Shown here in pieces: positions 3,124 to 12,424 of a stretch of 64,000 nucleotides of DNA. The position numbers were made by a program, and so were the translations under genes. This DNA is from Escherichia coli O127:H6 str. E2348/69 (lineage in GTDB: Bacteria; Pseudomonadota; Gammaproteobacteria; Enterobacterales; Enterobacteriaceae). How positions within the stretch are numbered: the stretch's first letter is position 1; each line of letters begins with the position of its first letter. The notes under the pieces were generated by a model. It ran no database searches. It was given only the letters and a program-made list of their open reading frames with translations, and was not told where the DNA came from. The DNA lies in NCBI RefSeq assembly GCF_000026545.1, contig NC_011601.1. One strand, 5' to 3'.

Positions 3124-3675
3124 ATGCAAGATATTACAAACATCGCAGTGACTGGCGAAGATGGCGTGGTGACGTATGCCGACGGCAGTAAAGAGGAGTT
3201 CCAGTGCAGCGGAACCGTTGCGACCATCATTGCAAGTCTTGCAACGACACTCGAGAAAGAACGCAAAATGCGCATCGCCACCGGCGACCGCCTGCGCCGC
3301 ATGTACACCCGCGACAGTGATATGATTTCCCGCGGTTTGAATGGCACGTCTGCTACTTCCACGGCACCGACAGCAATGAATGCTGAGTTCATGCGTCTGG
3401 TACGTGCCGTAGCGCCGAAATACGATTCAGCACTGCCCGACGCCGACCCGCGCATCGTTGCGCTCGATGTGCTGCGCTACGCCCCTGCTGAGGCGTTCAG
3501 CGCCGTACACCCTACCCCAATGTCAGAAATCCAGCTGGATCAGGCTATCGATATACTCGAGCAGGTTGGCGACTACATGAAAGCAAACAATATCGCTCCG
3601 AAAATAATTTCTACAGGAGACGCAATCCGCAGCATCAATGCTGACAACGCCACCTTCTGGGGCAAAAAACACTAA
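3124..3675 (+). CDS. Hypothetical protein, 183 aa (first gene of cargo operon)
   Basis: ORF of 183 aa, same strand and closely spaced with three downstream ORFs; no motif recognised. Confidence 0.6.
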   Translation: MQDITNIAVTGEDGVVTYADGSKEEFQCSGTVATIIASLATTLEKERKMRIATGDRLRRMYTRDSDMISRGLNGTSATSTAPTAMNAEFMRLVRAVAPKYDSALPDADPRIVALDVLRYAPAEAFSAVHPTPMSEIQLDQAIDILEQVGDYMKANNIAPKIISTGDAIRSINADNATFWGKKH

Positions 3676-3688
3676 AGAGATATGAAGC

Positions 3689-3877
3689 ATGTCTATCTAT
3701 GACCCGAAATTAGCCGCAGGCAACCCACAGCGCGCCCACCGCCCAATGCTGACCCGTCAGGATCTTGAAACGGCAAAGGCACGCAATAACTTCGATCGCC
3801 AGAGTCGCAACCTGCAGCAACTCAACGAATCAAATGCACGGTTCTGGAGTGAACAGAATGAGAAAGCCAAACGTTAA
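3689..3877 (+). CDS. Hypothetical small protein, 62 aa
   Basis: Small ORF 14 bp after previous stop; basic/charged composition; no recognised domain. Confidence 0.4.
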   Translation: MSIYDPKLAAGNPQRAHRPMLTRQDLETAKARNNFDRQSRNLQQLNESNARFWSEQNEKAKR

Positions 3878-4034
3878 GCCGGTCCTGCTGTCCGCCGAGC
3901 AGATGCAGGCCATACGCAACATTCAGGAACGTGAACGCCAGCGCTCCAATCTCGGCGTCGCTCCCACCGTTCACCAGATTGCCCGCGGCCTCATGGCTAA
4001 GGCTCTGGCCTCACTGGCAAGCGAGGGCGCGTAA
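3858..4034 (+). CDS. Hypothetical small protein, 58 aa (start taken at ATG 3858)
   Basis: RBS ggag 9 nt upstream of ATG 3858; its stop overlaps the start of the next gene (TAATG). Confidence 0.4.
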   Translation: MRKPNVKPVLLSAEQMQAIRNIQERERQRSNLGVAPTVHQIARGLMAKALASLASEGA

Positions 4035-4765
4035 TGGGCGCCATTCACCAGATATATGAGCAGGAAATGTTCTATAACTGGATAGGCGATGGTAAACGAT
4101 GTGTAGCATTCCACGAAGCGGGCCATGCAGTAGCCGCATGGCTTATTCGCTTAGATATGCAGGTTATCGCCATTATGGATGAATCCGGCTACGTTGCTGG
4201 CGAACATGTACATGAAGCCCAGTGTTTGGGCGTTGTTAAACACGGCATAATCCACAGCCACGATCTCAGGCGTTTGCGGGAGAGTAAATCTGGTGTAGTT
4301 GGGCACGATGGCAAAGTTATCCCTTTCATACGCTACTACGCGGAAGGTATAAAGCGCGATGCAACAAAGGCCGCTTTTGTAGCCCTCGCTGGACCAGTAA
4401 GCGAAGCCATTTACGAAAATAACGAAATTTTCAATATAAAGTATTCACTCCCTCACCGCTATGACATGGCTAACGTAAATGACATGCTCGATTTAATATG
4501 TGCCACGGATAAGCGAATTAACAGGAAGTTAATGCTTTCTAAACTTGTTGAAAAGACCAAATTCCTCATGACTCAATACTGGCCGGAAGTAGGAAAAATA
4601 GCGCATTTGCTTGAGCGGGATAACATTGTTAATGGCCGCGATGTTAGCTCGCTAATCGGCCTCAACGTCATTGACCGGGCAACGCCATTTTTGGTATCTG
4701 ACTTGAGCAGTACATTTGCTCATCTCCCGTACTCGTCCCTGCCTCCGAATGAATTAGCAACTTGA
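4034..4765 (+). CDS. Standalone FtsH-like (M41-type) zinc metallopeptidase domain protein, 243 aa, no AAA+ module
   Basis: VAFHEAGHAVAAWL closely matches the FtsH zinc-binding HEAGH motif; later ALAGPVSEAIYEN resembles the FtsH third-ligand region; no Walker A/B present. Confidence 0.55.
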   Translation: MGAIHQIYEQEMFYNWIGDGKRCVAFHEAGHAVAAWLIRLDMQVIAIMDESGYVAGEHVHEAQCLGVVKHGIIHSHDLRRLRESKSGVVGHDGKVIPFIRYYAEGIKRDATKAAFVALAGPVSEAIYENNEIFNIKYSLPHRYDMANVNDMLDLICATDKRINRKLMLSKLVEKTKFLMTQYWPEVGKIAHLLERDNIVNGRDVSSLIGLNVIDRATPFLVSDLSSTFAHLPYSSLPPNELAT

Positions 4766-4812: not shown

Positions 4813-6036
4813 TTAAGAATTAGAGCGCTTAGGCGATCGCGTAAATTGCACTAAAGCCCCTTTATGATCGTTAGCCTGCACATCACGATGCTCAACCAAC
4901 ATAGATTTTAATTTTGCCAGATGCACAACAGCAGCCTTCTTGCCAGTCAGGTACCCCTCGGGCAAACCAGCAATCATTTCCACATCAATAGCAGATAAAC
5001 CTGCGAATGCAGCAAGCCGTTCAACTGAAATGATTCCAGACGATGCCAGCAATTCAATAGTACGTTTCAACAAACGTGGTTTTTCAGGCTCACGATAATC
5101 ATCTCCCGGCTCTGATTTCGCTCCCCAACGTGCTGAACGACGCTTATAAAGATTTTGTTTCTCTTCTTCCGTAATAATATGCAGCACATGTAAACGCATG
5201 ATACTTGCCGCAACGGAAATACCATAGCGTTGTTTAATTAAAAGCAAGCTATCTAATGTTACCGGGGTCCTAATTTCTTCGGCAAATGTCTCAGCAGGAA
5301 GCAGCAGTGCTCCCGCAAATTTATGAGCCTGACTTTCCTTCAGCTTATAACGTTCGGCTTCGAGTTCGTTGCCAACATAGCGGTGAAGGATCAGATGACC
5401 AATTTCGTGAGCAAGGTCAAATCTGCTACGAAAAGCATTACCTTTATCTGAAGAGAGGAGAACAAAAGGAACACCTAAAGTCTCACTCCAGGCAGAAAGC
5501 CCTTCAATCTGCGCAACGCCTGTTTCTTCTCTAATAACGATAATACCATTACTCTCTGCGGCTAAAGCAAGATCCGGTATTTCCTTTGTACCAAGATTCC
5601 AAAGAGCACGGCACTCATTAGCAGCGTCTTCAATATCTGCATCACTAATTTCATCAATGTTTGTAAAGCTACGACGCGGTAGTTTTAGCTCCGGCAGATC
5701 TACAAACTCAGTCAGCTTAGTAACTAACTCATTAGCCCAATGGATTCGAGTTTCTAACATTGCTCGTGCAGCTACATGAGCTGATGCATTGCTTCTGAAC
5801 AGAGGCTTTGACATCCCCTTCAACAGAGGGCGCGTAAACCATTCAGGTGTAACATTTACGACAGTGGCCAGACGTTCTAAAGCCTCAGACTCTGGAGCCT
5901 GTTGACCGGAACGCCATTTGCTAATGGTTGCTGGTGATACACCCACCATAGTAGCTAATTGAGTTTGTGATAGCCGCCGGGCGGCTAGTACCTGTGCTAA
6001 CCTGCCCGGTTGAAATTCGGCGACGCCTCGGCTCAT
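4813..6036 (-). CDS. XRE-family HTH fused to ImmA/IrrE (M78-type) metallopeptidase, with ~150-aa C-terminal extension (407 aa)
   Basis: N-terminal LSQTQLATMVGVSPATISKWRSG helix-turn-helix; FDLAHEIGHLILHRY HExxH motif typical of ImmA/IrrE peptidases. Confidence 0.75.
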   Translation of the reverse strand: MSRGVAEFQPGRLAQVLAARRLSQTQLATMVGVSPATISKWRSGQQAPESEALERLATVVNVTPEWFTRPLLKGMSKPLFRSNASAHVAARAMLETRIHWANELVTKLTEFVDLPELKLPRRSFTNIDEISDADIEDAANECRALWNLGTKEIPDLALAAESNGIIVIREETGVAQIEGLSAWSETLGVPFVLLSSDKGNAFRSRFDLAHEIGHLILHRYVGNELEAERYKLKESQAHKFAGALLLPAETFAEEIRTPVTLDSLLLIKQRYGISVAASIMRLHVLHIITEEEKQNLYKRRSARWGAKSEPGDDYREPEKPRLLKRTIELLASSGIISVERLAAFAGLSAIDVEMIAGLPEGYLTGKKAAVVHLAKLKSMLVEHRDVQANDHKGALVQFTRSPKRSNS

Positions 6037-6680
6037 ACATTATCTTCCTCGGTTCCATCTTTTCTGATAATGCCCCTTTTGAGCCCAGGGAATGCATTAT
6101 CTTCTTGGGACGGAACTACATCATATCGGGTTAAAAAAAGTTCAAGTGGCTCATGAAAAACCCAGCGCTTCCCATCAGAACTTGGTACAACAAGCTCTAT
6201 AGACATCGGAGCTTCAGGCTGAATCTGCAACGAACCGGAAAAACGGCATACTACGAACAGTGTAGCTTTTGGCACATCAGAACCATCGGAGAATAAATCC
6301 GGTTGCACCATTTTTTCCACAAACACGTTCTCAGAAATGAGTTCTTGCTTACGTTTGCTACGGAATAATCTCTTCCACTGGTTATCATTGTAGCTTTCAC
6401 GAACAATCGTGAATATACCACTATGGCCTTCTACAATACGGTTACCACGCAGCTTTCCAGGATTACAACCGTTGGCCTCAAACACCTCATAAATAGTTTC
6501 ATTCAGGTTTAAATGACGATCATAACCAAGCGCGGTCGATCTGTGATCTAGCTTCTTCTTTTGAGCATAATCGTAAGAACGCTTTGATGCCGCGTAAATC
6601 GCGTCAGAAAGGGCCATGAAGAGTTGTTTTGAAACATTCTGAACGATGAGATCTGCCACTTTGGATTTTTTCACGACCAT
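6033..6680 (-). CDS. Hypothetical protein, 215 aa, translationally coupled upstream partner of the HTH-ImmA gene
   Basis: ORF of 215 aa; its stop overlaps the downstream start (ATGA at 6033-6036); no recognised motif. Confidence 0.6.
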   Translation of the reverse strand: MVVKKSKVADLIVQNVSKQLFMALSDAIYAASKRSYDYAQKKKLDHRSTALGYDRHLNLNETIYEVFEANGCNPGKLRGNRIVEGHSGIFTIVRESYNDNQWKRLFRSKRKQELISENVFVEKMVQPDLFSDGSDVPKATLFVVCRFSGSLQIQPEAPMSIELVVPSSDGKRWVFHEPLELFLTRYDVVPSQEDNAFPGLKRGIIRKDGTEEDNV

Positions 6681-6683
6681 TTC

Positions 6684-6702
6684 CTATCACTGTCACTGAT
6701 AG
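6684..6702. promoter_or_regulatory. Inverted repeat CTATCA-N7-TGATAG overlapping the RBS/start region of the 215-aa gene (candidate operator)
   Basis: Read directly from sequence immediately adjacent to the start codon at 6680. Confidence 0.25.
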
Positions 6703-7209
6703 CCGTGATTTTATATCAGTATTTTTTCGTGTGTCCATAACGCAATCAATTATTTTTTCCTTTGTCAGCAAGAATTATATAAAAAGCACTATCATGACAG
6801 GATTTGGGCCACTAACCTTTCACAGACTCTTGAAGTCCTAGAAAAAAGCAATGGCACAAGGTGTCCTTGCCGGGAGAAAAATCATCTGGCTACCAGCAAC
6901 CTTATAGATTCCAGATCAACGTAATATCAAAGTAAAACGTCCATTTCCGGTACCATATTTGGTCATTACGACGGGGGAAACTTATACCCACTGCTGCCCC
7001 ATCGTCAGCGCCGACAGGGACCTATGCCGCAAGGTATAAGGCAAAATTGGCATTTTCGCTATTCCCCCTGCCCGTATTTTTTGGCTTACTGGAATTTCTC
7101 TATCTAACACAATGAACTTGAGGCTATTCCGACAGGGAGAAAAGCGATCTACGCCTGACCGCCTGCCTCAGCAATCATCCAGGCAAGTACGTGTGTAAGG
7201 CTAACGCGA

Positions 7210-7890: not shown

Positions 7891-7992
7891 CTGAGTTTTC
7901 ATAACTCCGATGAGTTTTCAATAACTCCCCCACCCGTAACCACCTACCCCGTAGCCTTGCGATTACCTTCTCACTCAATAGCAGGTAATCGC

Positions 7993-8205
7993 ATGAAATC
8001 GCAAACTTTCACCTTTCCTACCAATGGCAACGCACGAGCCAAACAAGTGGCGCACTATCTTGGAGTGCATATCAGCACCGTATGGCGCTATGCAAAACGT
8101 CCTGATTTTCCAAAACCCCACCAGTTAACCGACGGCGTGACCGTCTTTGACGCCGCAGCTATTCGCCAATGGAACAAGCAAAAAACCGGGGGTGAGAATG
8201 CTTAA
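7993..8205 (+). CDS. alpA: AlpA-family phage transcriptional regulator / excisionase-like DNA-binding protein (70 aa)
   Basis: KQVAHYLGVHISTVWRYAKRPDFPKPHQLTDGVTVFDAAAIRQW is the AlpA-type HTH pattern; start set at ATG 7993. Confidence 0.8.
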   Translation: MKSQTFTFPTNGNARAKQVAHYLGVHISTVWRYAKRPDFPKPHQLTDGVTVFDAAAIRQWNKQKTGGENA

Positions 8206-8259
8206 CGCGACCGTGAGCACACCCTGCACGACAGCCGTTCGATCTCCATTGTTGGCGGG

Positions 8260-8454
8260 TCAGGCTTTCGGCTCAATACCCAGCCGCTGGAGTTCTTTGC
8301 GCCCCAAGGTTTTCATCCAATTAGCTAAACTCATACCTGCATCTCGTGCGGCGGCCTCGAATTGCTCTTTCAATTCTGGGGCGATCCTCACTTGGAAAGC
8401 TGGTGCCTTTCCCCTGCCTTTGGGCTGTTTATCACGCTGTATTACTGTTGACAT
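8260..8454 (-). CDS. Small ribbon-helix-helix-like protein (64 aa), opposite strand to the replication operon
   Basis: FQVRIAPELKEQFEAAARDAGMSLANWMKTLGRK resembles RHH (Arc/CopG-type) strand-helix-helix; start chosen at internal Met. Confidence 0.4.
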   Translation of the reverse strand: MSTVIQRDKQPKGRGKAPAFQVRIAPELKEQFEAAARDAGMSLANWMKTLGRKELQRLGIEPKA

Positions 8455-8588
8455 GTATGTACCTATTAAACTAAGATTCAAATCAATAGGTACGCACCTT
8501 AACATGTTAAGGTCAGAAAAGACAACGCCCCGTAGTGCTCGCAACACATACGGGGCGTCTAACCAACAACGTTACGGAGACTAACGCT

Positions 8589-8789
8589 ATGGCTAAGCCG
8601 CAGTGTACCCAAACTCACCCCAAATATCAGTATCGTTTTATGGCGCTCGATCGCGCTGACCGCCAGGCAAAACCCTGCAAAATCATTGTTGAGGCCACCA
8701 GCGAGCATGAAGCACGTAAGGTGTTGGCACCTCACTACATCCTGTCACTGTCCGCCGTTTTGCCAGTTCAGGAGGTGAGCCATGTTTAA
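8589..8789 (+). CDS. Hypothetical small protein (66 aa), satellite replication-module operon
   Basis: RBS ggaga upstream of ATG 8589; overlaps next ORF. Confidence 0.5.
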   Translation: MAKPQCTQTHPKYQYRFMALDRADRQAKPCKIIVEATSEHEARKVLAPHYILSLSAVLPVQEVSHV

Positions 8790-8976
8790 TGTCATTGTCA
8801 CGGTCACCTATCACTTTTCGGGAACGATCCGTCGTTTTGCTATTCCGGAACGTTTCAATAATCGTGAGCTCGCAGAGAAAGCGGCGCAGCAGTTAACCCA
8901 TACCAGCTATCTGGATGATGGAGTGAGCAGAATTGTGACCCACGCGGCGGAAGTAGTGGAGGTGCGCCATGTATGA
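8782..8976 (+). CDS. Hypothetical small protein (64 aa)
   Basis: Strong RBS caggaggtg; overlapping start/stop with neighbours. Confidence 0.55.
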   Translation: MFNVIVTVTYHFSGTIRRFAIPERFNNRELAEKAAQQLTHTSYLDDGVSRIVTHAAEVVEVRHV

Positions 8977-9157
8977 CGCCTACCTGAACCCAAAGGACGC
9001 ACTCCGTCCGATCGCCGTTGCACTCGAGGCTGCGCAGTTTATCGCGCTTGACCCGGAGAATACCGATTTAGCCCATGAGCTGATCGCCTGGGCACTTGAA
9101 ACAGCCGCGCGTGCCTCAGCTGCGCAACGTAACACCCCGGAGGTGGACAATGCTTAA
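8969..9157 (+). CDS. Hypothetical small protein (62 aa)
   Basis: RBS ggaggtg upstream; translationally coupled. Confidence 0.5.
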   Translation: MYDAYLNPKDALRPIAVALEAAQFIALDPENTDLAHELIAWALETAARASAAQRNTPEVDNA

Positions 9158-9458
9158 TCTCAATACATGGAATCTTTTCACGCTGCCGCTGAACGGTGGC
9201 GCAGCTGAGACAGCGCCGGACGATCTGCGTCTGCTGGCCGCTGTGGGGGACGAGGCTCGCAACAACTACCTGCGCGGTGTAAGCGCCATCGGCAATCTGA
9301 TCTTCTGGGCATGTGATAACCCCAACTACACCGACCATCAAGCTGACCTGCCAGCGCTGGGCGCATTCCTGAAACATACCGCTGATATGGCGCGCGCTGC
9401 CGAATTCATGGCAGGACATCTGGACTCACTGGCTGACGGCAAAGAGGGAGGCAAATAA
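9150..9458 (+). CDS. Hypothetical protein (102 aa)
   Basis: RBS ggaggtg before ATG 9150; stop overlaps next start. Confidence 0.55.
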   Translation: MLNLNTWNLFTLPLNGGAAETAPDDLRLLAAVGDEARNNYLRGVSAIGNLIFWACDNPNYTDHQADLPALGAFLKHTADMARAAEFMAGHLDSLADGKEGGK

Positions 9459-9679
9459 TGCCACGCAAACATCGCTCATCAAGCAACCTGATCAAATTAA
9501 TGGAACGCCAGAAAGGTATAGGGCGCGACGATATCCAGATCGCAGATAATCGCCCTACATTCATGCCGTACGAGCCGAACGGAACCTACGCTACAAACCG
9601 CCATACCCGCCGTATGCTACGCAAGCTCCACGGCATCCAGGCAAAAAGAATGTGTGATCTGAAAGGAGGTCAGAAATGA
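9458..9679 (+). CDS. Hypothetical small basic protein (73 aa)
   Basis: RBS gagggagg; stop overlaps primase start (ATGA). Confidence 0.5.
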   Translation: MPRKHRSSSNLIKLMERQKGIGRDDIQIADNRPTFMPYEPNGTYATNRHTRRMLRKLHGIQAKRMCDLKGGQK

Positions 9680-12090
9680 GTGGATTCGATCACCTGATGG
9701 AGCAGGGGCAGAAACGCACCCCTGCTCGTTTTACTGCAAATAGCTTTTCTGACCTGTGCAACGCTATTCTATCGCATCGTGTGCAAATTTCCATCACACA
9801 GGAAATGACGGATGAAGAACGGCGCAAAGAAAAGCAGAAACTGTACTGGTTCTCGGCAACTACCCAGCAGGACGGGCAGCGACGTAAACCCGAAAACATG
9901 GCACCGTGTGCTTTCGGTATGCTGGACATTGACGGCAGCACTCCCGGTGCAATCACAGCACTTGTACAGGTGTTCCGGCGATACTCAATGCTGGTGTACC
10001 AGACGGCCAGCTATACGACGGATGAACCTCGTCTGCGTATTGTGTGCGAGCTTTCCCGAGCGGTTGAATCTGACTACCGCCGAGCGACAGGCGAATCCAT
10101 AGAAACTTTGTTGATGCAGGAGGCTGGATTCTCATTCGCCAGCCTGGCGGATAAGAAAGCACGCTGGGAGAACGGCAGCGATTATGTTGTCTTTGACCGC
10201 AATGTATACGGCGCTCAAAGCTATTGCTACTGTCCACACACTGGAGCGAAAGCCCAGAATTACGCGGGCGCGGTAATCGACGTAGGGGCGTTACCGGAAC
10301 CCGCCCAGCCACCAGCGAAGGCGGCCAAAAGCAAGGCAAAGAAACAGCGCCAGCGTGACGCCGCGGCGGTAATAGATGCTGATTTTGACGATCTGAGCGC
10401 CGGACCGGATAACTTCCTTATCGCCGACCTGCGCAGCGCACTCTGGTTTCCCTCCATGCTGCAAAAGGCATGGGACAATGGGGCGTGGATTGAGCAGGGC
10501 TACCGCCTTGCATCTCTCAAAGGCACCGATTTTGAGGACGACGCGCGGCAACTGTGGGTCGAGTGGTCATTGACCGCAGCGGATGGCTGGCCTGATGAAG
10601 AACTTGATGAAGTCGCGGCACAACGCTGGAATGGTCTCGCCCCTGACAAAACCAGCTATAAAGCTATTTTTACTGATGCTCAGGCGCAGGGGTGGAATAA
10701 TCCGGGCAAATGGCGAGCAAAGGCCGCGTACATTGAGAAAATGGCCCCCAGCACACGCGGTGAACTGCTGGCGCAATATTACGGCAACGTATGCCTGAAA
10801 GCTGATGGCAACATGGTTTATCACTATACCGGGCAGGTGTGGGAGCACATCGCCGATGCCGAGTTGCGCCGCCAGCTTTCGCAGATTTTCAAAGATAACG
10901 GGGTCCCCTTTACACCGTACGAGGTTAAAAGCGCGATTGAGGCTATGGGAATGCTTCTGCCTTTAATGGGAGAAACTCCTCGTAACCTGATTGGCTTTGC
11001 CAACGGCGTTTATGATCTCGAGGCGCAGCGATTCCGCCCCCACTGCCCAGACGATTGGCTGACCAGCCATAACGGCGTTGAATACACGCAGCCGGTTAAA
11101 GGCGAAACCCTGAAAAACAATGCCCCAAACTTCTGGCGCTGGCTGCATCATTCCGCAGGGGGCGACTTCGACAAAATGGAGAGAATCAAAGCCGCTCTGT
11201 ATATGGTGCTGGCAAACCGCTACGACTGGCAACTGTTCATCGAGGTTACCGGTGCTGGTGGCAGTGGTAAAAGCGTGTTCACGGGTATTGCACGTATGCT
11301 GACGGGCGAACTACACGCCACCAGCGGCACAATGGAGGACATGGACACCGCGCGCGAACGCGCATCTTTTGTCGGCAAAAGCCTGATCACCCTACCCGAC
11401 CAAGCAACATATACGGGTTCCGGGCCGGGTATCAAGGCTATAACGGGCGGCGACGTGGTAAGGATCGACCCAAAGCACGAAAAGCCATTCCATACGGTTA
11501 TTCGCGCCGTTGTCATCGCAACAAACAACGAACCTATGCGTTTCACCGAACGACAAGGCGGGATATCGCGGCGCCGGGTTATTTTCCCGTTTAACCATGA
11601 AGTGCCGGAGGCGGAACGTGATCCCCATCTGCTCGATAAAATTAAAGCCGAACTGCCGGTAATCGTCCGTGGTCTGCTGATTGACTTCGAACAGCCAGGC
11701 AAAGCCAAATCGCTACTTATCGCGCAGCGTGATTCAGCGGAAGCGCTGCAGGTGAAGAACGATAACGACCCGATGTATGGCTTTTGCTCTTACCTGCTAG
11801 GTTTGCCGAATCCCGAGGGCATGTACATGGGCGATGGGCGCATGGCGCGAGAGCCACGCATCTACCTCTATCATGCTTATCTGGCCTATCTGGAAGCCTA
11901 CGGTTATCAGAGAACCCCCACCCTACCGAAGTTCAGCGGAGATTTACGGGACACGCTCAAAGCCTTTGGTATTACTCTGGACAGTAAAAAGAGTAAAAAG
12001 GGCAAAAGATATAACGTCAATTTGTCTGACAGGGCACAAGAATGGCTGGGAGAAGACGAACTCTCAGCTGTGCCCGACACATTGCAGTAA
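9676..12090 (+). CDS. P4 alpha-like bifunctional DNA primase/helicase (804 aa)
   Basis: Walker A GAGGSGKS in the C-terminal half; size and architecture typical of P4-alpha-type replication proteins; RBS aaggagg. Confidence 0.85.
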   Translation: MSGFDHLMEQGQKRTPARFTANSFSDLCNAILSHRVQISITQEMTDEERRKEKQKLYWFSATTQQDGQRRKPENMAPCAFGMLDIDGSTPGAITALVQVFRRYSMLVYQTASYTTDEPRLRIVCELSRAVESDYRRATGESIETLLMQEAGFSFASLADKKARWENGSDYVVFDRNVYGAQSYCYCPHTGAKAQNYAGAVIDVGALPEPAQPPAKAAKSKAKKQRQRDAAAVIDADFDDLSAGPDNFLIADLRSALWFPSMLQKAWDNGAWIEQGYRLASLKGTDFEDDARQLWVEWSLTAADGWPDEELDEVAAQRWNGLAPDKTSYKAIFTDAQAQGWNNPGKWRAKAAYIEKMAPSTRGELLAQYYGNVCLKADGNMVYHYTGQVWEHIADAELRRQLSQIFKDNGVPFTPYEVKSAIEAMGMLLPLMGETPRNLIGFANGVYDLEAQRFRPHCPDDWLTSHNGVEYTQPVKGETLKNNAPNFWRWLHHSAGGDFDKMERIKAALYMVLANRYDWQLFIEVTGAGGSGKSVFTGIARMLTGELHATSGTMEDMDTARERASFVGKSLITLPDQATYTGSGPGIKAITGGDVVRIDPKHEKPFHTVIRAVVIATNNEPMRFTERQGGISRRRVIFPFNHEVPEAERDPHLLDKIKAELPVIVRGLLIDFEQPGKAKSLLIAQRDSAEALQVKNDNDPMYGFCSYLLGLPNPEGMYMGDGRMAREPRIYLYHAYLAYLEAYGYQRTPTLPKFSGDLRDTLKAFGITLDSKKSKKGKRYNVNLSDRAQEWLGEDELSAVPDTLQ

Positions 12091-12109
12091 CTTGTAAAAA
12101 ATCACCAAG

Positions 12110-12132
12110 AACCCCGTAAATCGGGGTTTTTG
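12110..12132 (+). terminator. Rho-independent terminator after the primase gene
   Basis: Hairpin aaccccg-taaa-tcggggtt followed by ttttt. Confidence 0.65.
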
Positions 12133-12149: not shown

Positions 12150-12265
12150 AAGGGTGAACAGGTGCGCATACCTTAACAAAGCTGTTCACTCTAATAATTT
12201 TCTTTAATATCAGTACACTACCCGCAATAAGTGAACAGATGGACGGGGTGAACACTTCACACCTA
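12150..12265. repeat. Cluster of GGTGAACA-type motifs (four to five copies, both orientations) near the attR end
   Basis: Read from sequence; mirrors the motif cluster at 2636-2740. Confidence 0.4.
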
Positions 12266-12405: not shown

Positions 12406-12424
12406 TTGTACCCAAGACTGTACC
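12406..12424 (+). repeat. attR core: second copy of 19-bp direct repeat TTGTACCCAAGACTGTACC
   Basis: Exact match to 1282-1300. Confidence 0.75.

Follow-up and report, generated by a model that had tools for sequence, protein, structure and literature searches.

At positions 8589-12090 of the stretch of DNA analysed here (the window, i.e., 64,000 nt of contig NC_011601.1 from Escherichia coli O127:H6 str. E2348/69, in whose coordinates features are given), six genes follow one another on the + strand. These are open reading frame 1 (ORF1; 8589-8789, 66 aa), with an Icd-like product; ORF2 (8782-8976, 64 aa), at the position occupied by epsilon in P4; ORF3 (8969-9157, 62 aa); ORF4 (9150-9458, 102 aa), for a helical-hairpin protein; ORF5 (9458-9679, 73 aa), for a basic protein and coupled to the start of the next gene; and the gene for an 804-aa primase-helicase (9676-12090). 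RefSeq/PGAP gives identical coordinates for all six coding sequences in E2348/69 (locus offset 801), each annotated as a hypothetical protein. The operon is hosted by an 11.1-kb island inserted between yicC and dinD, and the region is, in our judgement, probably the early/replication operon of an integrated phage-satellite-like element of the kind represented by P4 and the Gram-negative phage-inducible chromosomal islands (PICIs).

Each gene of the operon overlaps the next, by 8 nt at the first three junctions (ATGTTTAA, ATGTATGA, and ATGCTTAA), by 1 nt at the fourth (TAATG), and by 4 nt at the fifth (ATGA); start and stop codons are thus interlocked, and each downstream Shine-Dalgarno (SD) sequence sits within the last codons of the gene before. 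A preliminary description of the region had characterized the junctions as ATGA or TAATG, which is true of the last two, the other three being of the form ATGnnTAA/TGA. It had also credited every ORF with a strong SD sequence; this holds for five of the six starts (SD core of 5-7 nt, anti-SD duplex energies of -10.6 to -12.3 kcal/mol) but not for ORF1, whose ribosome-binding site is the weakest of the six (GGAG only, -6.6 kcal/mol). By comparison, a 5-mer SD core precedes 4.7% of the 1051 ATG triplets on the + strand of the window, and the mean duplex energy over 400 sampled window ATGs is -1.4 +/- 2.5 kcal/mol, with 2.8% at or below -7; set against this background, the arrangement is real and far beyond chance. 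From the anatomy of the junctions we infer that the six cistrons are translationally coupled. Expression of the small ORFs as a single unit with the primase, likewise proposed in the preliminary description, is well supported by what surrounds them: a promoter-like sequence upstream (8448-8477), no convincing terminator in the operon interior by consensus scan, and a predicted intrinsic terminator downstream (12106-12132, + strand; an 11-bp stem, then a T run).

That the small ORFs are real genes, as had been argued from their junctions, is borne out by their substitution patterns. Nei-Gojobori estimates of the ratio of nonsynonymous to synonymous substitution rates (dN/dS), obtained by comparing window genes with those of related loci, are 0.14-0.15 for ORF1, 0.26 for ORF2, 0.05-0.14 for ORF3, 0.10-0.16 for ORF4, and 0.09-0.11 for ORF5, next to 0.15-0.18 for the primase gene; with such low values in every small ORF (0.05-0.26), all five are under protein-level purifying selection. 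The eight close relatives (L006 to L013) were drawn from NCBI genome assemblies and one Logan assembly, and encode primases 92-94% identical to that of the window; a query of genome contigs with the primase alone confirmed no relative. The preliminary description had named loss of the small ORFs from elements that keep the primase as the observation to look for against it. The small ORFs prove instead to be conserved in such elements: in these eight loci, ORF1, ORF3, and ORF4 are present throughout (8/8 each, with ORF3 in three of them detected as a partial 67% match only), ORF5 is present in five, and ORF2 in four.

Beyond this set, the exact small proteins occur in a public collection, and their 90%-identity clusters include Salmonella, Citrobacter, Kluyvera, Klebsiella, Leclercia, and E. 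albertii. The small ORFs also recur in order in islands of Salmonella, Citrobacter, Leclercia, and Erwinia and on metagenomic contigs, with mosaic swaps; for instance, some relatives have an inserted ORF of 157 aa, and in L011-L013 the place of ORF5 is taken by an ORF of 60 aa. Gene order and overlapping junctions are retained at more distant loci, with identities in L015/L016 of 68-71% for the Icd-like protein, 37% for ORF2, 48% for ORF3, 54% for ORF4, and 72% for ORF5. Further still, L017 retains ORF3 (63%) and ORF4 (44%), and L018 (Erwinia mallotivora) retains ORF3 (53%) and ORF5 (54%). Within E. coli, the module is found in 17 of 5426 complete genomes, always at an identity of at least 96%, and ORF2-5 have no match among 50,697 phage records.

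The sixth gene encodes a composite protein. A novel N-terminal domain (residues 1 to ~350) is followed by D5_N, by DUF5906, which we read as a superfamily 3 (SF3)-type helicase, and by a Pox_D5/origin-binding domain, with matches to Pfam families and to TIGR01613 (109.9 versus a cut-off of 108.7). Residues 314-791, i.e., the helicase and origin-binding part, are 44% identical to P4 alpha, whereas no alignment with the N-terminal part of alpha is obtained for the first ~313 aa; the label "alpha-like" used in the preliminary description thus fits only the C-terminal portion. The C-terminus matches PDB chain 1ka8, deposited as "putative P4-specific DNA primase", which we take to be the origin-binding domain of alpha. 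The N-terminal part is 49% and 29% identical to the N-termini of 913-aa and 955-aa proteins bearing a C-terminal DUF927. It has no direct Pfam match, and its comparison with PDB sequences gave chance matches only; it does contain an LDIDG motif (DxD; D84 and D86) on a predicted strand, and a helical segment (~245-345) aligns with the PriCT_2 region of protein P0124 (PF08707, 7.8e-7). Weak Foldseek matches of a low-confidence model to members of the archaeo-eukaryotic primase (AEP) superfamily (AsfvPrimPol, E = 0.055; the polymerase domain of LigD, LigD-Pol, probability 0.8) point the same way. The primase half is therefore read as probably a different module, of AEP/PriCT-2 type, that recombines with two helicase types. 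A stand-alone protein with this N-terminal domain exists in Erwinia (P0122, 419 aa), and at L017 (2357-4688) the primase is encoded in two overlapping ORFs of 403 and 390 aa, reflecting either a frameshift or a natural split between primase and helicase modules.

ORF5 is bound up with this N-terminal domain. Directly upstream of every replicase sharing the domain, and overlapping its start, lies either an ORF5 homologue (88-54% identity; L006-L008, L009, L010, L014, L015/L016, and L018) or "5b", a 59-60-aa basic protein (7490-7672 in L011-L013; 2181-2360 in L017) that is 24% identical to ORF5 and has the motifs RQxG and NR(R/H)xRR in common with it. The association extends across both helicase types, D5/alpha and DUF927. 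Conversely, the gene before alpha in P4 encodes Cnr (DUF5375), and the replicases of the capsid-forming PICI (cf-PICI)-like islands L004 and L005 are preceded by a DUF4222 gene, neither of which resembles ORF5. The family is small, comprising, among 5.8 billion proteins, no more than six clusters at 90% identity. Since ORF5 or 5b always lies upstream of the same N-terminal domain, a replication cofactor is suggested; ORF5 probably works together with the primase domain, in a manner akin to that of Cnr on alpha in P4, and could serve in loading, in specificity, or in the control of copy number.

Of the remaining small proteins, ORF1 is the one with a clear family. It covers the full profile (1-48) of NCBIfam NF033153, "host cell division inhibitor Icd-like" (64.8 bits against a cut-off of 25; 5.3e-18), also matches phrog_1743, and shares 44% identity with the C-terminal part of an ORF annotated cI in the P4 record. 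The section of PMC10111431 that cites Forti et al. 1999 describes eta as coupled to an upstream alpA homologue and as housing CI and seqA, with Kil a truncated eta, and ascribes cell-division inhibition or killing to P1 Icd and P4 Kil; we take the cI-annotated ORF to fall within the eta/kil region of that account. Host division arrest is thus the role to be expected of ORF1 from its family membership. The earlier statement that none of the small proteins has a recognizable motif is therefore wrong for ORF1. ORF2-5 have no Pfam or NCBIfam match; among these four, ORF4 alone matches a PHROG family, itself one with no assigned function.

ORF2-4 are small element-specific proteins that differ in their persistence. 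ORF2 is the small ORF most often replaced; in Leclercia and Erwinia (L009, 6459-6827; L018, 1783-2133), a single protein combines an Icd-like N-terminus with an ORF2-like C-terminus whose last residues are EVVEVxHV, which suggests recombination at conserved SD/overlap junction cassettes. ORF3 is the most persistently conserved, at 46-98% identity across all relatives examined. ORF4 carries a conserved motif (G-x-SAIGNL-x-FWA-x-DN-x-NY), belongs to a tiny family (16 representatives at 50% identity in 1.8 billion proteins), and is modelled by AlphaFold 2 (AF2) as a long helical hairpin (predicted local distance difference test score [pLDDT] of 86). Its fold matches are to generic hairpins only (EsxA/WXG100 and Rop, E of at least 0.19), and ORF4 is not put forward here as a WXG100 protein. 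ORF3 and ORF4 lie side by side and are conserved jointly, on Pantoea plasmids as well, and, speculatively, may act together.

The preliminary description had proposed comparing the small proteins with P4 epsilon and orf151 and with the replication-module proteins of PICIs, and had raised a role in helper interaction or derepression. Comparison did not bear this out at the level of homology: hhalign probabilities for ORF2-5 were below 2% against epsilon, orf151, and Cnr of P4, and equally so against the small ORFs of L003-L005, DUF4222, and the small ORFs of vB_KppS-Ant, and homology to all of these was rejected. For epsilon itself, tblastn gave no match to ORF2-5 at E <= 1 and hhalign a probability below 1%; tblastn likewise showed no similarity to orf151 or Cnr. 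What speaks for an epsilon-like role is the position of ORF2.

Upstream of ORF1 lies a control region with the layout of a repressor-operator switch. A divergent 64-aa gene (8260-8454, - strand; a PGAP coding sequence) encodes a ribbon-helix-helix (RHH)-like candidate repressor, with weak matches to HicB (PF05534, 18.3 bits against a cut-off of 21), the Arc-like phrog_228 (3.3e-5), TraJ (2e-4), and YlcI_YnfO_N (0.025). A 95-aa version of this ORF was rejected; its N-terminal extension contains a stop codon in L015, which supports the 64-aa start. A consensus scan places a sigma-70-like promoter on the + strand (8448-8477; TTGACA, 18 nt, TAAGAT), and in eight related leaders TTGAC of the -35 hexamer is invariant, with A as the sixth base in seven. 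Over the -10 and +1 positions fall two palindromes, which are candidate operators: GTACCTATT and AATAGGTAC separated by 17 nt (N17; 8459-8493), and ACCTTAACA followed by TGTTAAGGT (8496-8513). From element to element, their sequences change together with the RHH allele; palindrome arms are common to the window, L010, and L016, whose 64-aa proteins are 96% and 83% identical, and L015, L006, L009, L004, and L005 each differ from these in both arms and RHH allele. Repression by the RHH protein is consistent with this covariation.

Between the palindromes and ORF1, the 5' untranslated leader contains a conserved hairpin (8525-8558, + strand) with a 10-bp stem and a loop of 14 nt that is constant. 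Compared with shuffled sequences, the leader RNA has the better fold (z = -3.8), and blastn located the motif (8514-8572) at 1133 places in 973 of the 5426 complete E. coli genomes, 5' of Icd-like genes; most of these occurrences of the motif are unannotated. A few compensatory changes occur within the hairpin in the eight-sequence leader alignment, and the element may act either as RNA or as DNA. It has no Rfam family match, and an Rfam search of positions 7900-9800 gave neither C4, isrK, nor any other credible family, only two chance matches (E ~ 3). In a P4 control, Rfam detected C4 and isrK at 74.9 and 60.8 bits; these families (CI RNA and seqA) gave no match in the window with the limit relaxed to E <= 10, and none in the relatives at the gathering threshold.

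Past the primase terminator lies a putative origin (12150-12260), comprising four TGTTCAC(C) iterons in both orientations (12153-12254) with an AT-rich spacer. These are identical to TGTTCACC, the annotated type-I repeat of P4 ori and crr. An iteron cluster 3' of the primase is kept in L006, L009, L010, and L011, with nine copies in vB_KppS-Ant; iterons are absent after the DUF927-type replicases of L014 and L015, and L004 and L005 carry other repeats. An origin downstream of pri is known from Gram-negative PICIs (PMC10111431), and the iterons fit an origin that would be recognized by the alpha-like C-terminal domain. With the iterons beyond the primase at one end and the RHH gene at the other, the replication module runs from ~8260 to ~12260 and exceeds the 8589-12090 of the preliminary description.

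The island is delimited by perfect 19-bp direct repeats (TTGTACCCAAGACTGTACC) as attL (1282-1300) and attR (12406-12424), and its gene order is int, a four-gene block, an RmrT/RmrA-like pair, the int-alpA motif, a 226-aa ORF, AlpA, the divergent 64-aa gene, the operon, the terminator, and the iterons. The tyrosine integrase gene (1361-2620; Pfam Arm-DNA-bind_3, Phage_int_M, and Phage_integrase) is intact, and the gene for the AlpA-family regulator/excisionase (7993-8205, + strand; PF05930 Phage_AlpA, 7.7e-7; a PGAP coding sequence) lies upstream of the operon. Between them, the four-gene block (3124-4765, + strand) encodes proteins of 183, 62, 58, and 243 aa, the last with an HEAGH metalloprotease-like motif; no PHROG or PADLOC family matches the block, and its sole Pfam match is a sub-threshold Peptidase_M41. 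Relatives have the block at 72-97% identity, including those with an unrelated integrase (26% identity), and it therefore resembles core content of the element family rather than cargo. The RmrT/RmrA-like overlapping pair (4813-6036 and 6033-6680, - strand; PADLOC RmrA 3.5e-125 with helix-turn-helix and Peptidase_M78, RmrT 8e-16) is candidate anti-phage or toxin-antitoxin cargo sited between int and alpA, and is not present in related islands. An Rfam int-alpA RNA motif (7117-7184, + strand; 39.4 bits, gathering score 35.8) lies 5' of the 226-aa ORF and alpA, and occurs also in L006, L009, and L010.

No gene is present between the putative origin and attR; past the primase there are only the terminator, the iterons, and attR. 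Homologues of capsid proteins, terS, sid, delta, and psu were found by neither PHROG nor Pfam among the tested island ORFs, and we found no published name for the E2348/69 island in the literature. The related islands L009-L013 adjoin a tRNA gene and have a different integrase. On a 6.7-kb assembled contig, L015 has an integrase 71% identical to that of the window (5559-6686) 3' of its replicase, the arrangement expected if a related element were present in circular (excised) or tandem form. Elsewhere in the window, and unrelated to the operon, is the tRNA-Sec gene selC (38278-38372, + strand), which we take to be the classical insertion site of the locus of enterocyte effacement (LEE) pathogenicity island in E2348/69.

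Taken together, these features suggest the following as the most likely course of events. In the quiescent state, the RHH protein would bind the palindromes over the -10/+1 region and hold the 8448-8477 promoter off. EcCICFT073 is induced by helper-dependent expression of AlpA (PMC6092414), and induction here could occur in the same manner or by read-through from alpA, the latter being possible because no + strand terminator-like site was found by consensus scan between 8205 and 8589. The active promoter would then yield a single polycistronic mRNA of ~3.65 kb, reaching from the conserved structured leader to the 12106-12132 terminator, along which ribosomes would move from gene to gene via the SD sites in the last codons of each upstream gene. 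ORF1, by homology, would block host division, and ORF5, to judge by its co-occurrence with the domain, may help the N-terminal primase domain; the primase-helicase would bind the TGTTCAC iterons through its P4-alpha-like C-terminal domain and replicate the excised circle.

Several considerations weigh against this interpretation or parts of it. The RHH assignment of the 64-aa gene comes from sub-threshold matches, and the promoter and terminator of the operon are consensus matches only. For the N-terminal primase domain, the AF2 model is poor (pLDDT of 56) and its Foldseek matches, with E values of at least 0.02, are not significant. ORF5 is swapped for the 24%-identical 59-60-aa protein in L011-L013 and L017 despite the kept N-terminal domain, and so its link to the primase is not strict at the sequence level. 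More broadly, no recognizable packaging, capsid, or terS gene is present among the island ORFs tested, and to our knowledge no helper phage of the island has been described; satellite status is thus unproven.

The absence of a late or packaging zone between primase and attR would also be explained if the island were a decaying remnant and the operon a silent, functionless relic, to which the occurrence of the module in so few complete E. coli genomes (17/5426), a decayed copy on Pantoea plasmids, and the split primase of L017 lend some weight. We nonetheless regard this as improbable, given six intact genes with dN/dS of 0.05-0.26, perfect att repeats, intact integrase and AlpA genes, and a family that is spread over different insertion sites and several genera with unrelated integrases. 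Still less credible, to the point of being nearly negligible, is the notion that some of the small ORFs were annotated in error, being no more than open frames within a long leader 5' of the primase gene. They are short, and the paucity of database matches (Pfam or NCBIfam for none of ORF2-5, PHROG for ORF4 only) is what such artefacts would show, yet synonymous changes far outnumber nonsynonymous ones in every ORF, SD sites are strong, and proteins are conserved down to 37-72% identity with frames and overlaps kept. A more serious competitor, though one we hold to be rather unlikely, has ORF2-5 as fast-evolving accessory genes for helper-phage manipulation or counter-defence, i.e., analogues of epsilon that ride on the early transcript. 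The location of ORF2 where P4 has epsilon is in keeping with this, as are tiny, lineage-restricted ORF families and mosaic content, both in the close relatives (ORF2 in 4/8, ORF5 in 5/8) and elsewhere, with extra ORFs of 157, 198, 75, and 149 aa. However, ORF2-5 bear no similarity to epsilon, ORF3 and ORF4 are retained across genera, and the junction with the primase is invariably occupied by ORF5 or its second allele, which tracks the N-terminal domain over two helicase types. On balance, the early/replication operon of a satellite-like island remains the preferred reading.

Two linked proposals go further and are offered tentatively, with the odds against them: that ORF5/5b is a dedicated basic cofactor (loader or regulator) of an uncharacterized AEP/PriCT-2-like domain shuffled between P4-alpha/D5 and DUF927 helicases, and that the RHH protein is a master repressor of Gram-negative PICI-like islands, acting through allele-specific palindromes over a near-invariant promoter and leader. 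Were this true, the leader hairpin, which 18% of complete E. coli genomes contain, would add another control element not described so far. In any case, a block of "hypothetical proteins" in the prototype enteropathogenic E. coli strain emerges as a coherent, selected early operon of a satellite-type island, with three leads to follow, namely a small protein that tracks a primase domain, a candidate repressor-operator pair, and a widespread leader hairpin.

As regards class, the P4-like core set comprises int, psu, delta, sid, alpA, and epsilon along with alpha (PMC8628076). The island has an integrase and an AlpA/Vis homologue and lacks epsilon, sid/delta/psu, and CI RNA/seqA; it fails this definition and is not a member of the P4-like family. 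Gram-negative PICIs are divided into four zones, Integration, Bro, Replication, and Late (PMC10111431, PMC6092414), and their SatelliteFinder core consists of int, a regulator/alpA, pri-rep, a capsid-morphogenesis gene, and terS (PMC10085698). The order int, alpA, pri-rep is present in the island, with a putative origin after pri, and a capsid-morphogenesis/interference gene and terS are lacking; with three of the five core components, it would be a "Type C" PICI-like element, a class that is abundant and not confidently assigned (PMC10085698, PMC11773190).

In its details, the island resembles Gram-negative PICIs and cf-PICIs of the EcCICFT073 type in having co-oriented int and alpA, an Icd-like gene and small ORFs leading to pri, an origin downstream, and defence-type cargo between int and alpA, but the Late zone is wholly missing. 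The cf-PICI-like E. coli islands L004 and L005 have the leader hairpin and the promoter -35 hexamer in common with it, whereas their small ORFs and DUF4222 differ from ORF2-5 and their iterons are others. Phage P1 offers a parallel in its icd-ant operon, in that ORF1 falls in the NCBIfam Icd-like family and, as icd does, opens an operon that lies downstream of an immunity region; unlike at P1 icd, no C4 antisense RNA lies upstream of ORF1. Replicases combining AEP/PriCT-2 and SF3-helicase domains (pRN1 ORF904 type; PMC2777425) share with the primase-helicase a putative DxD primase domain, a PriCT-2-like helical domain, D5_N, and DUF5906, but the N-terminal domain here is without a direct Pfam match and its structural matches are weak.

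The closest parallel in layout is the P4 left operon (eta/kil, epsilon, orf151, cnr, alpha). Both have an alpA homologue, an Icd-like ORF, small ORFs, a primase-helicase, and TGTTCACC repeats downstream; in both, neighbouring small ORFs share 8 nt of the form ATGnnTAA/TGA, and the SD lies within the gene before; and 44% identity links ORF1 to the C-terminal part of a P4 ORF and the C-terminal 490 aa of the primase to alpha. Differences lie in ORF2-5, which are unrelated to epsilon, orf151, and Cnr; in the N-terminal ~313 aa of the primase, not aligned with alpha; in the want of sid, delta, and psu; and in immunity, where the island is without CI RNA or seqA and has a divergent RHH gene at that place. 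The modestly new elements are a primase with a swapped domain, the association of ORF5 with the primase domain, the candidate protein repressor at the place of CI RNA, and the widespread leader hairpin. Otherwise, this is an ordinary P4/PICI-type early operon whose genes were already in RefSeq, and current views are not overturned because the architecture is as specialists expect for such elements. Ultimately, the island takes a place intermediate between P4 and the Gram-negative PICIs. At the site where RNA immunity is encoded in P4, the island has a gene for a candidate protein repressor, and it is without a packaging module; what it holds in common with P4 is an Icd-like gene in first place, the junctions of coupled genes, an origin-binding domain of alpha type, and the iterons.

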